NCBI GenBank assembly: GCA_030679895.1
Contig: JAUXSN010000047.1
Location: forward strand, 1,328 to 65,327
Length of the DNA stretch: 64,000 bases
Reading direction: 5' to 3'
Source of the DNA: Candidatus Moraniibacteriota bacterium
GTDB lineage: Bacteria > Patescibacteriota > Minisyncoccia > Moranbacterales > UBA11712
In this document: positions 54,751 to 55,455 of the stretch, one piece after another
Position numbering within the stretch: the first letter of the stretch is position 1
How the letters are laid out: the number at the start of each line of letters is the position of its first letter
The notes under the pieces: model-generated
What the model was told of the DNA's origin: nothing
The model's database searches: none
The model's input: the letters and a program-made list of their open reading frames with translations, nothing else
Translations under genes and position numbers: made by a program

Positions 54751-55455
54751 ATGCAAGATAGCGATAAAATAATTTCATATCACGAAATGGTAGGAATGGA
54801 AAAAATGCCCTTGCAGCGAGGCATGGTTTTTTCAGATGGAAAAAGAAAATATTCAATTTTGTTAATGTCGCAAAGAAAAGACGCGGTCTACAACGATGGC
54901 TTTGATGAAAATGGAAATTTAACTTATGAAGGACACGATGCAAGAGCTGAAAATGGCATTAACCCAAAAAAGATAGACCAACCATTTGAAACACCAAAAG
55001 GAACTTGGACTGAAAACGGGAAATTTTATAAAGCTGCAATGGATTTTAAAAGCGGAATAAGAAAAGATCCGGAACTTGTAAAAGTTTATGAAAAAATTGA
55101 TGTTGGAGTTTAGTCAATAAAAGGATTTTTCCAACTTATTGATGTTAAACAGGTATCTGGCGGAAAAAGAAATGTTTTCAAGTTTTATTTAAATCCAGTT
55201 TTGACTAAAATTTTTAACCGAGTTGAAGATTTACCATTCAATCGTTTGATTCCAACAGCGGTAAAAGTAAAAGTTTGGGAAAGAGACAGAGGGAGGTGTG
55301 TTTTATGTGGCTCAGTAGAAAATTTACATTATGATCATGATTTACCATATGCAAAAGGCGGAACAAGTTTGACAGAGAAAAATATTAGGTTGCTTTGTGC
55401 TACTTGTAATTTAAGAAAGCACGATAAAATAATGATTTTTGTTTGTTTCTTATAG
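54751..55455 (+). pseudogene. SRA(YDG)-HNH modification-dependent (type IV-like) restriction endonuclease, interrupted by one in-frame TAG at 55111-55113
   Basis: ORFs 54751..55113 and 55201..55455 are in the same frame, separated only by the amber codon. N-part has the SRA-like YSILLMSQRKDAVYNDGFDENGNLTYEGHD motif. C-part has the HNH motif CVLCGSVENLHYDHDLPYAKGG...CATCNLRKHDK. Confidence 0.6.

Follow-up and report, generated by a model that had tools for sequence, protein, structure and literature searches.

The window, i.e. the whole stretch of 64 kb of DNA that was analysed, belongs to a contig of 149,640 bp in a metagenome-assembled genome (MAG) of Candidatus Moranbacteria (Patescibacteria). 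It contains an AT-rich islet of 1.76 kb (GC 0.33 vs 0.445 in the rest of the window), which is flanked by ftsK and by an ArsP-type permease gene adjoining rpoC/rpoB. Within the islet lies an SRA-HNH gene (GC3 0.24), whose reading frame is interrupted by a stop codon. The following features were distinguished:

53878 to 54504, plus strand: DUF3800 gene (PF12686, E 3e-17; PADLOC candidate defence family PDC-M04A; GC 0.34)
54529 to 54597, minus strand: DUF3800-IX RNA motif (Rfam RF02968), full length, 51.1 bits vs a gathering score of 36.8, E 1.3e-9
54751 to 55110, plus strand: 5′ part of the SRA-HNH gene, codons 1–120, with most of the predicted SRA domain including Y47, D49, D52 and Y59
55111 to 55113, plus strand: premature amber codon TAG in place of the invariant Trp121 codon TGG (G>A at 55112)
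55114 to 55200, plus strand: segment in neither ORF, residues 122–150, with the greater part of the two final long beta-strands of the predicted SRA barrel
55201 to 55455, plus strand: 3′ part of the SRA-HNH gene, with the linker and the complete HNH domain (beta-beta-alpha-Me); 84-aa ORF from TTG
55457 to 55507, plus strand: 5′ stub (MNIFIKNKNY...) of an ORF that has 69–87 aa in relatives; homology to the relatives ends at about 55490

The RNA motif is located directly 3′ of the DUF3800 gene on the opposite strand, and overlaps a terminator-like hairpin (54507–54532). DUF3800 homologs were absent from all 81 loci related to the SRA-HNH gene, therefore we regard the DUF3800 gene and its RNA motif as a separate unit; with its own RNA motif and 0/81 co-occurrence, DUF3800 was ruled out as a functional partner. 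DNA homology to the nearest relatives (~84% nucleotide identity) spans only positions 54742–55492. No methylase was seen among the genes of the 64-kb window.

Translation of positions 54751–55455 on the plus strand yielded 234 codons with a single internal stop (TAG, 55111–55113) and a terminal TAG at 55453–55455. The two ORFs reported for this region, 54751..55113 (120 aa, ATG) and 55201..55455 (84 aa, TTG), are in a common frame, 450 nt apart from start to start. The earlier note had claimed that the two ORFs share a frame with only the TAG between them and that the intervening 87 nt translate cleanly; the translation and the ORF list agreed with the former, and the 29 codons (55114–55200) bridging the ORFs read, as first described, SIKGFFQLIDVKQVSGGKRNVFKFYLNPV, a stretch that matches the intact homologs residue for residue. 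Judged by these homologs the true gene start is the ATG at 54751. GenBank's gene caller chose a later, internal ATG: the N-terminal half is recorded as a 108-aa 'hypothetical protein' (MDP1845937.1), and an exact look-up of the 120-aa ORF returned no record. The C-terminal half is the 84-aa 'HNH endonuclease' MDP1845938.1, and MDP1845936.1 is the DUF3800 protein. The two halves of the disrupted gene are thus entered as two CDSs, not as one pseudogene.

The read-through protein had 1,789 homologs, the best of which were intact proteins of 232–250 aa. Its top match was a full-length protein of 234 aa (E = 2.6e-144, 91% identity, 100% of the query covered), and full-length matches of this quality put the identification of a split gene beyond chance. 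At the position of the stop, tryptophan was found in 32/32 homologs of a 33-sequence alignment (A1). A 59-sequence alignment of intact members gave the same result, the W121 column being invariant in 58/58 homologs. In all eight close relatives for which the DNA was fetched, Trp121 is encoded by TGG, in a context (GTT TGG TCA ATA AAA GG) that is otherwise almost unchanged from that of the window. Since the tryptophan is invariant in the proteins and the codon is TGG in 8/8 DNA relatives, the lesion can be described as a single G>A transition at 55112 (TGG>TAG). At each of the 71 invariant positions of A1 the window copy agrees with its homologs, and the codon taken over by the stop is one for an invariant Trp, which bears out the statement of the earlier note that the TAG is the only lesion. 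Intact homologs align across the stop, which differs by a single nucleotide from a conserved sense codon, as expected of a nonsense pseudogene.

An orthologous locus carrying TGG was sought in metagenomes with a 26-mer around the codon (R at the variable base), which had 0 matches in JGI metagenome contigs. Among the GTDB representative genomes no copy exceeded 89% protein identity, and none had ftsK and the permease gene as its surroundings. Exact copies of the DUF3800 and permease proteins were confined to one SRA run, SRR13727519. As no orthologous TGG locus was found, the ancestral state was taken from paralogous or xenologous copies. The family occurs in Patescibacteria, Verrucomicrobiota, Nitrospirota (including the complete chromosome of Nitrospira defluvii), Acidobacteriota, Bacteroidota, Ignavibacteriota and in one Woesearchaeota MAG. 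A search of viral contigs gave a single match, to the HNH part only, and a phage-borne family was ruled out on this ground.

The two domains of the protein were recognized by different means. The C-terminal HNH domain scored above the Pfam gathering score (PF01844, E 1e-8). The Pfam model SAD_SRA (PF02182) reached 12.2–13.8 bits (E 0.05–0.15), which is below its gathering threshold of 30.7 bits, and PADLOC and NCBIfam detected only the HNH part. For the N-terminal part we used an AlphaFold (AF2) model of an intact homolog (P0001, 91% identical), computed from the 59-sequence alignment (mean pLDDT 84.4, pTM 0.82). A Foldseek search of the PDB with the model of P0001 found the SRA domain of SUVH5 as the best match (E 5.5e-6), followed by SUVH6, KRYPTONITE and UHRF1. 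The SRA-containing restriction enzymes AspBHI, MspJI, AbaSI and ScoMcrA were also matched, and the alignment with ScoMcrA covered both the SRA and the HNH parts (277–307 columns, E 7e-5 to 2e-4). The modelled structure confirms that the N-terminal domain adopts the SRA (PUA-superfamily) beta-barrel fold. The architecture proposed in the earlier note was thus borne out, the HNH domain by Pfam and the SRA domain, which stays below the Pfam threshold, by the predicted fold and by the base-pocket motif described below.

Y47, D49, D52, Y59 and G61 are invariant in the 59 sequences. The family profile pairs 'YaDelD...liYeG' with the SUVH5 segment 'YNDVLD...LIYTG', a match that is weak when taken alone (E 0.67). 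In TagI the base pocket consists of Tyr55, Asp58 and Tyr67; the arrangement of two tyrosines 12 residues apart plus a carboxylate has also been described for UHRF1 (PMC6212794). By sequence, the family keeps this hallmark of a flipped-base pocket, with the tyrosines Y47 and Y59 spaced by 12 and a carboxylate from D49/D52. In the HNH part the 59-sequence alignment shows no variation at C186, D195, H196, N211, C216 and N220, and has C183 in at least 90% of its sequences; the 3′ part of the window gene encodes C183/C186/C216 and D195-H196/N211/N220. Searching all PDB chains with phmmer and with the 59-sequence profile revealed only generic HNH matches and the marginal match to SUVH5, and no homology to TagI or ScoMcrA, whose published structures are presumably contained in the chain set. 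On the sequence evidence the family is a separate, uncharacterised and compact SRA-HNH subfamily, divergent in sequence. By analogy with TagI, ScoA3IV and MsiJI, its members are predicted to have 5mC/5hmC-dependent activity.

In the model of P0001, Trp121 opens a beta-strand extending from residue 120 to 136, and the next strand comprises residues 141–152. Both belong to the SRA core, and the segment 122–150 was predicted with a pLDDT of 92–94. The suggestion that the 87 nt between the ORFs encode the C-terminal part of the SRA fold therefore agrees with the model, which places two core SRA strands there. The 120-aa product lacks, according to the model, the last two core SRA strands and the whole nuclease domain, hence it is predicted to be an inactive enzyme.

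One could also read the locus as GenBank presents it, with the halves forming a two-piece enzyme or with the 84-aa ORF expressed from TTG 55201 as a stand-alone HNH nuclease. The whole HNH domain does sit in the 84-aa ORF, and the HNH domains of TagI dimerise on their own (PMC6212794), which we counted in favour of an HNH-only product. However, residues 121–150, which make up most of the two core SRA strands, fall in neither product, and with the 29 codons between TAG and TTG missing from both, the SRA domain cannot be rebuilt from two pieces. No promoter-like site was found ahead of 55201 inside the gene on the plus strand. Among the start codons examined in the window 35/45 were ATG, which also speaks against initiation at TTG. 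The missing SD before TTG 55201 carries no information because an SD core (GGAG, GAGG or AGGA) precedes just 6 of the 45 putative starts in the window, where most leaders are A/T-rich. These leaders suggest that translation initiation in the Moranbacteria genome appears to be largely SD-independent, and in a genome that rarely uses SD sequences its absence is no argument against initiation. A stand-alone HNH form was not seen as a recurrent gene, the short proteins in its 90% cluster coming from short contigs or being fragments from the same MAG, and an untargeted HNH nuclease would have no evident role. We consider the two-piece or HNH-only reading very unlikely.

Next, we asked whether the TAG could be decoded. 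The window is 86% coding under code 11. Its 44 ORFs of at least 120 aa end with TAA (31), TAG (10, nine of which are other genes) or TGA (3), and none of the six tRNA genes in the 64-kb window has a CUA anticodon. The earlier note had observed mixed use of TAA, TGA and TAG and had seen no sign of stop-codon reassignment, and these counts leave that statement standing. Recoding of TAG by pyrrolysine or otherwise was ruled out by the stop usage and by the ancestral residue being tryptophan. A different possibility is that the stop is functional and that low-level or programmed UAG readthrough, or a suppressor tRNA encoded elsewhere, supplies a little full-length nuclease, attenuating a toxic enzyme. 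The frame past the stop is perfectly kept, as this would require, and near-cognate readthrough of UAG always happens to some degree. Yet such decoding would mostly fail to restore the invariant tryptophan, no tRNA with a CUA anticodon was found in the window, and TAG serves as the normal terminator of the nine other long ORFs. Moreover, the stop is conserved neither in the proteins (0/58 with a stop at the Trp121 position) nor in the close DNA relatives (0/8). The only other copy stopped at this place, L043 (a Patescibacteria MAG, JAOAEL010000002.1, 2602–3298), is a wreck: it has five in-frame stops, one of them an independent TAG at Trp121, and a frameshift. Functional readthrough seems to us the least credible of the readings considered.

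To judge whether the TAG is real, we turned to the assemblies. An independent assembly of SRR13727519, from Logan, has two contigs matching the window with 100% identity, L086 (47878–55095) and L087 (59994–55072). L087 carries the TAG; it includes 40 nt of the in-frame gene to the left of the stop, and the host permease gene and rpoC to the right. The Logan break at 55072–55095 coincides with the start of a 32–35 nt stretch (encoding the invariant ELVKVYEK motif) that is identical to homologs of other organisms. Because the break begins at 55072, at this shared stretch, it reflects an inter-genomic repeat, and we ruled out that a variant bubble at the TAG (55112) had caused it. An assembler artefact is unlikely.

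The gene could nevertheless be intact in the organism if the A at 55112 had come from an error in sequencing or in the consensus, or if both assemblies had picked up one strain's allele from a mixed population. The source genome is metagenome-assembled, and the region is hard to assemble, with 32–35 nt identical to genes of other organisms and the Logan contigs breaking there. The absence of decay past the stop is what an artefact predicts. Furthermore, the reads of the Logan run are probably the very ones from which the MAG was built, and for two assemblies made from the same reads a systematic base-call error or a strain allele would not be separable from a fixed mutation. Against an intact gene, the two different assemblies agree on the base at 55112, k-mers with the A in both gene and host contexts exist in the reads (L087), and the contig break is at 55072, not where a SNP bubble at 55112 would fall. 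Genuine pseudogenes with a single nonsense mutation are far commoner than wrong substitutions in the consensus of Illumina assemblies, which we counted against the error reading. Other members of the family are demonstrably pseudogenised: among the 81 loci from representative genomes, disrupted copies include at least L043, L053 (one stop) and L059. We did not include among the secure pseudogenes those copies from Microflora Danica MAGs that are frameshifted (L061, L070, perhaps L054 and L080), these MAGs being, as we believe, long-read assemblies prone to indel errors. An intact gene behind an error or a strain allele is in our estimate unlikely, if less so than the alternatives discussed above.

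The age of the lesion was estimated from the substitution pattern. When the window copy was paired with each of its five closest relatives, the dN/dS ratio (Nei-Gojobori) was 0.041–0.062, with dS of about 1.0–1.2. Intact pairs among the six close copies gave 0.045–0.071, and the window values were indistinguishable from these. The dN of the window copy to the outgroup L003 (0.095) was the lowest of the set (0.095–0.119). Relaxed constraint was thus not detected in the coding sequence of the window copy, neither as a raised dN/dS nor as further lesions. As nearly all of the divergence accumulated under purifying selection, the stop is either very recent or not real; constraint as well kept as this fits a very recent event or an artefact and nothing else, and an artefact would be expected to show it just as well. 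The earlier description of the change as a recent inactivating nonsense mutation is in keeping with the dN/dS of intact pairs and with the lowest dN to the outgroup.

The surroundings of the gene in its relatives were compared with those in the window. In the closest clade a conserved ORF of 69–87 aa follows the SRA-HNH gene on its 3′ side, of which the window keeps about the first 10 codons. This ORF had no match in Pfam, PADLOC or NCBIfam. On the 5′ side of the intact SRA-HNH genes of the same clade there is an N-terminal stub of a C5 cytosine methyltransferase, which ends exactly at the start codon of the nuclease. The positions in the individual loci (designated by L numbers) are as follows:

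Small conserved ORF: L001, 10710–10925; L082, 761–976; L083, 1558–1767; L084, 733–942; L088, 5708–5917
Methylase stub: L083, 201–857; L085, 1–189; L001, 9838–10008; L088, 4831–4998; equivalent in L089–L095

The stub corresponds to positions 1–44 of the Pfam profile in L001, 1–102 in L083 and 46–101 in L085, and is similarly short in L088–L095 (55–77 aa). The closest relatives lack the C-terminal two thirds of the methylase. This arrangement of the sequences suggests that a cassette with a 5mC-reader nuclease truncated a methylase gene or was inserted into one. A methylase is not a fixed neighbour family-wide: DNA_methylase was found once among 78 loci and the stub is limited to the closest clade.

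At these 78 loci defence-type genes (HTH, HNH_2, ResIII, a Schlafen-like helicase, STAND NTPase and Mrr) were mixed with unrelated housekeeping genes (glycosyltransferases) as the upstream neighbours. In L001 (12255–12884), L002 (2978–3568), L088 (6178–6984) and also in L089–L095, no more than about 1.5 kb separates the SRA-HNH gene from a gene with an NYN domain (PF01936); the contexts being otherwise different, the cassette may have another recurrent neighbour in this gene. In L083 the methylase stub, the SRA-HNH gene and the small ORF are followed, at 1742–2887, by a full-length-looking R.HinP1I-type endonuclease (PF11463) and Vsr (PF03852), a restriction gene beside a methylase that looks dead. 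Across the wider family the SRA-HNH gene is usually more AT-rich than its flanks. The family gene is a mobile, solitary defence gene.

In a broader scenario the SRA-HNH gene would travel as cargo on a mobile cassette the size of a gene, which inserts into C5-methyltransferase genes or came about by truncating them. On its insertion the window copy would then have shed the methylase stub and the greater part of the small ORF, to be inactivated afterwards. We regard this scenario as doubtful. If it were true, the cassette would settle the clash of a resident methylase with a nuclease that depends on 5mC. If the product of the small ORF regulated or inhibited the nuclease, truncation of that ORF could make the nuclease harmful and thereby select for the nonsense mutation.

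The reading we prefer is simpler. Quite probably, the locus holds a horizontally acquired gene for a type IV-like SRA-HNH nuclease that has very recently become an ordinary nonsense pseudogene; a strain variant or a base-call error is less likely. For the alternatives named in the earlier note (sequencing error, programmed readthrough, expression of the HNH half alone) we found no support. Originally, there would have been one gene for a compact, type IV-like SRA-HNH endonuclease of 234 aa, predicted to cut methylated DNA. The expected role of its N-terminal SRA domain is to bind a modified cytosine after flipping it out, and the C-terminal HNH domain would cut nearby. The gene presumably entered a small AT-rich islet, in the ftsK/ArsP-type permease interval of the Candidatus Moranbacteria chromosome, by horizontal transfer. 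Later, a G>A mutation at 55112 would have converted the TGG codon of Trp121 to TAG, ending translation after 120 residues, and the enzyme would be inactive with the last two core SRA strands and the nuclease domain missing. The mutation must be very young because the coding sequence shows no other sign of decay.

Loss of the gene may have been neutral or even favoured, as enzymes of this kind would kill hosts that bear the target modification on their own DNA. [quoted passage not shown] Given this published toxicity and these conflicts, mutational loss is unsurprising. In the earlier note the gene product was called a potentially toxic type IV nuclease, a view to which the toxicity of the characterised SRA-HNH enzymes to Dcm+ hosts lends support by analogy (PMC6212794, PMC6765204).

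For wider biology the case carries little weight: it would be another defence gene that was gained horizontally and quickly lost. Its practical consequence is that the two separate GenBank proteins for one pseudogene pollute the protein databases. The underlying family is large (more than 1,700 detectable homologs) and compact, and its sensor domain is missed by curated models. An intact member could reasonably be put forward as a candidate small modification-dependent restriction enzyme.

Three known systems can be compared with the locus. In the case of PcaRCI/PcaRCII (PMC8989522) a methylation-dependent HNH nuclease is silenced or lost when the host DNA bears the target mark, which may resemble the situation in the window. 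The parallel extends to the close relatives of the window gene, in which the adjacent C5-methylase is cut to an N-terminal stub. PcaRCI/PcaRCII is, however, silenced by promoter methylation, whereas the window nuclease appears to be silenced by a nonsense mutation, with no methylase seen in 64 kb. A nuclease/methylase conflict at the window locus can be offered only as conjecture.

The second system is ScoMcrA (SBD-SRA-HNH; PDB 5zmm), whose Foldseek alignment with the model of P0001 takes in the SRA and the HNH domains. It differs by an extra sulfur-binding domain and is about twice as long, with a sequence identity of just 13–16%.

The closest likeness in plan is to the SRA-HNH type IV enzymes TagI, ScoA3IV (Sco5333), TbiR51I and MsiJI (PMC6212794, PMC4333417, PMC6765204). 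The window family has no HMMER-detectable similarity to TagI or ScoMcrA, even with the 59-sequence profile, and its SAD_SRA score is below threshold. The family protein (234 aa) is also much shorter than the actinobacterial SRA-HNH proteins, and the window copy appears to be dead. The design is otherwise shared: an N-terminal SRA domain as predicted here, a flexible linker and a C-terminal HNH domain of the beta-beta-alpha-Me type. As in the TagI/ScoA3IV type, the genes are solitary, without a fixed partner and in defence-type neighbourhoods. The putative base pocket has the two tyrosines 12 residues apart and the carboxylate (here Y47, D49 and Y59), and the Cys ligands and the D-H...N...N catalytic residues of the nuclease domain are conserved.
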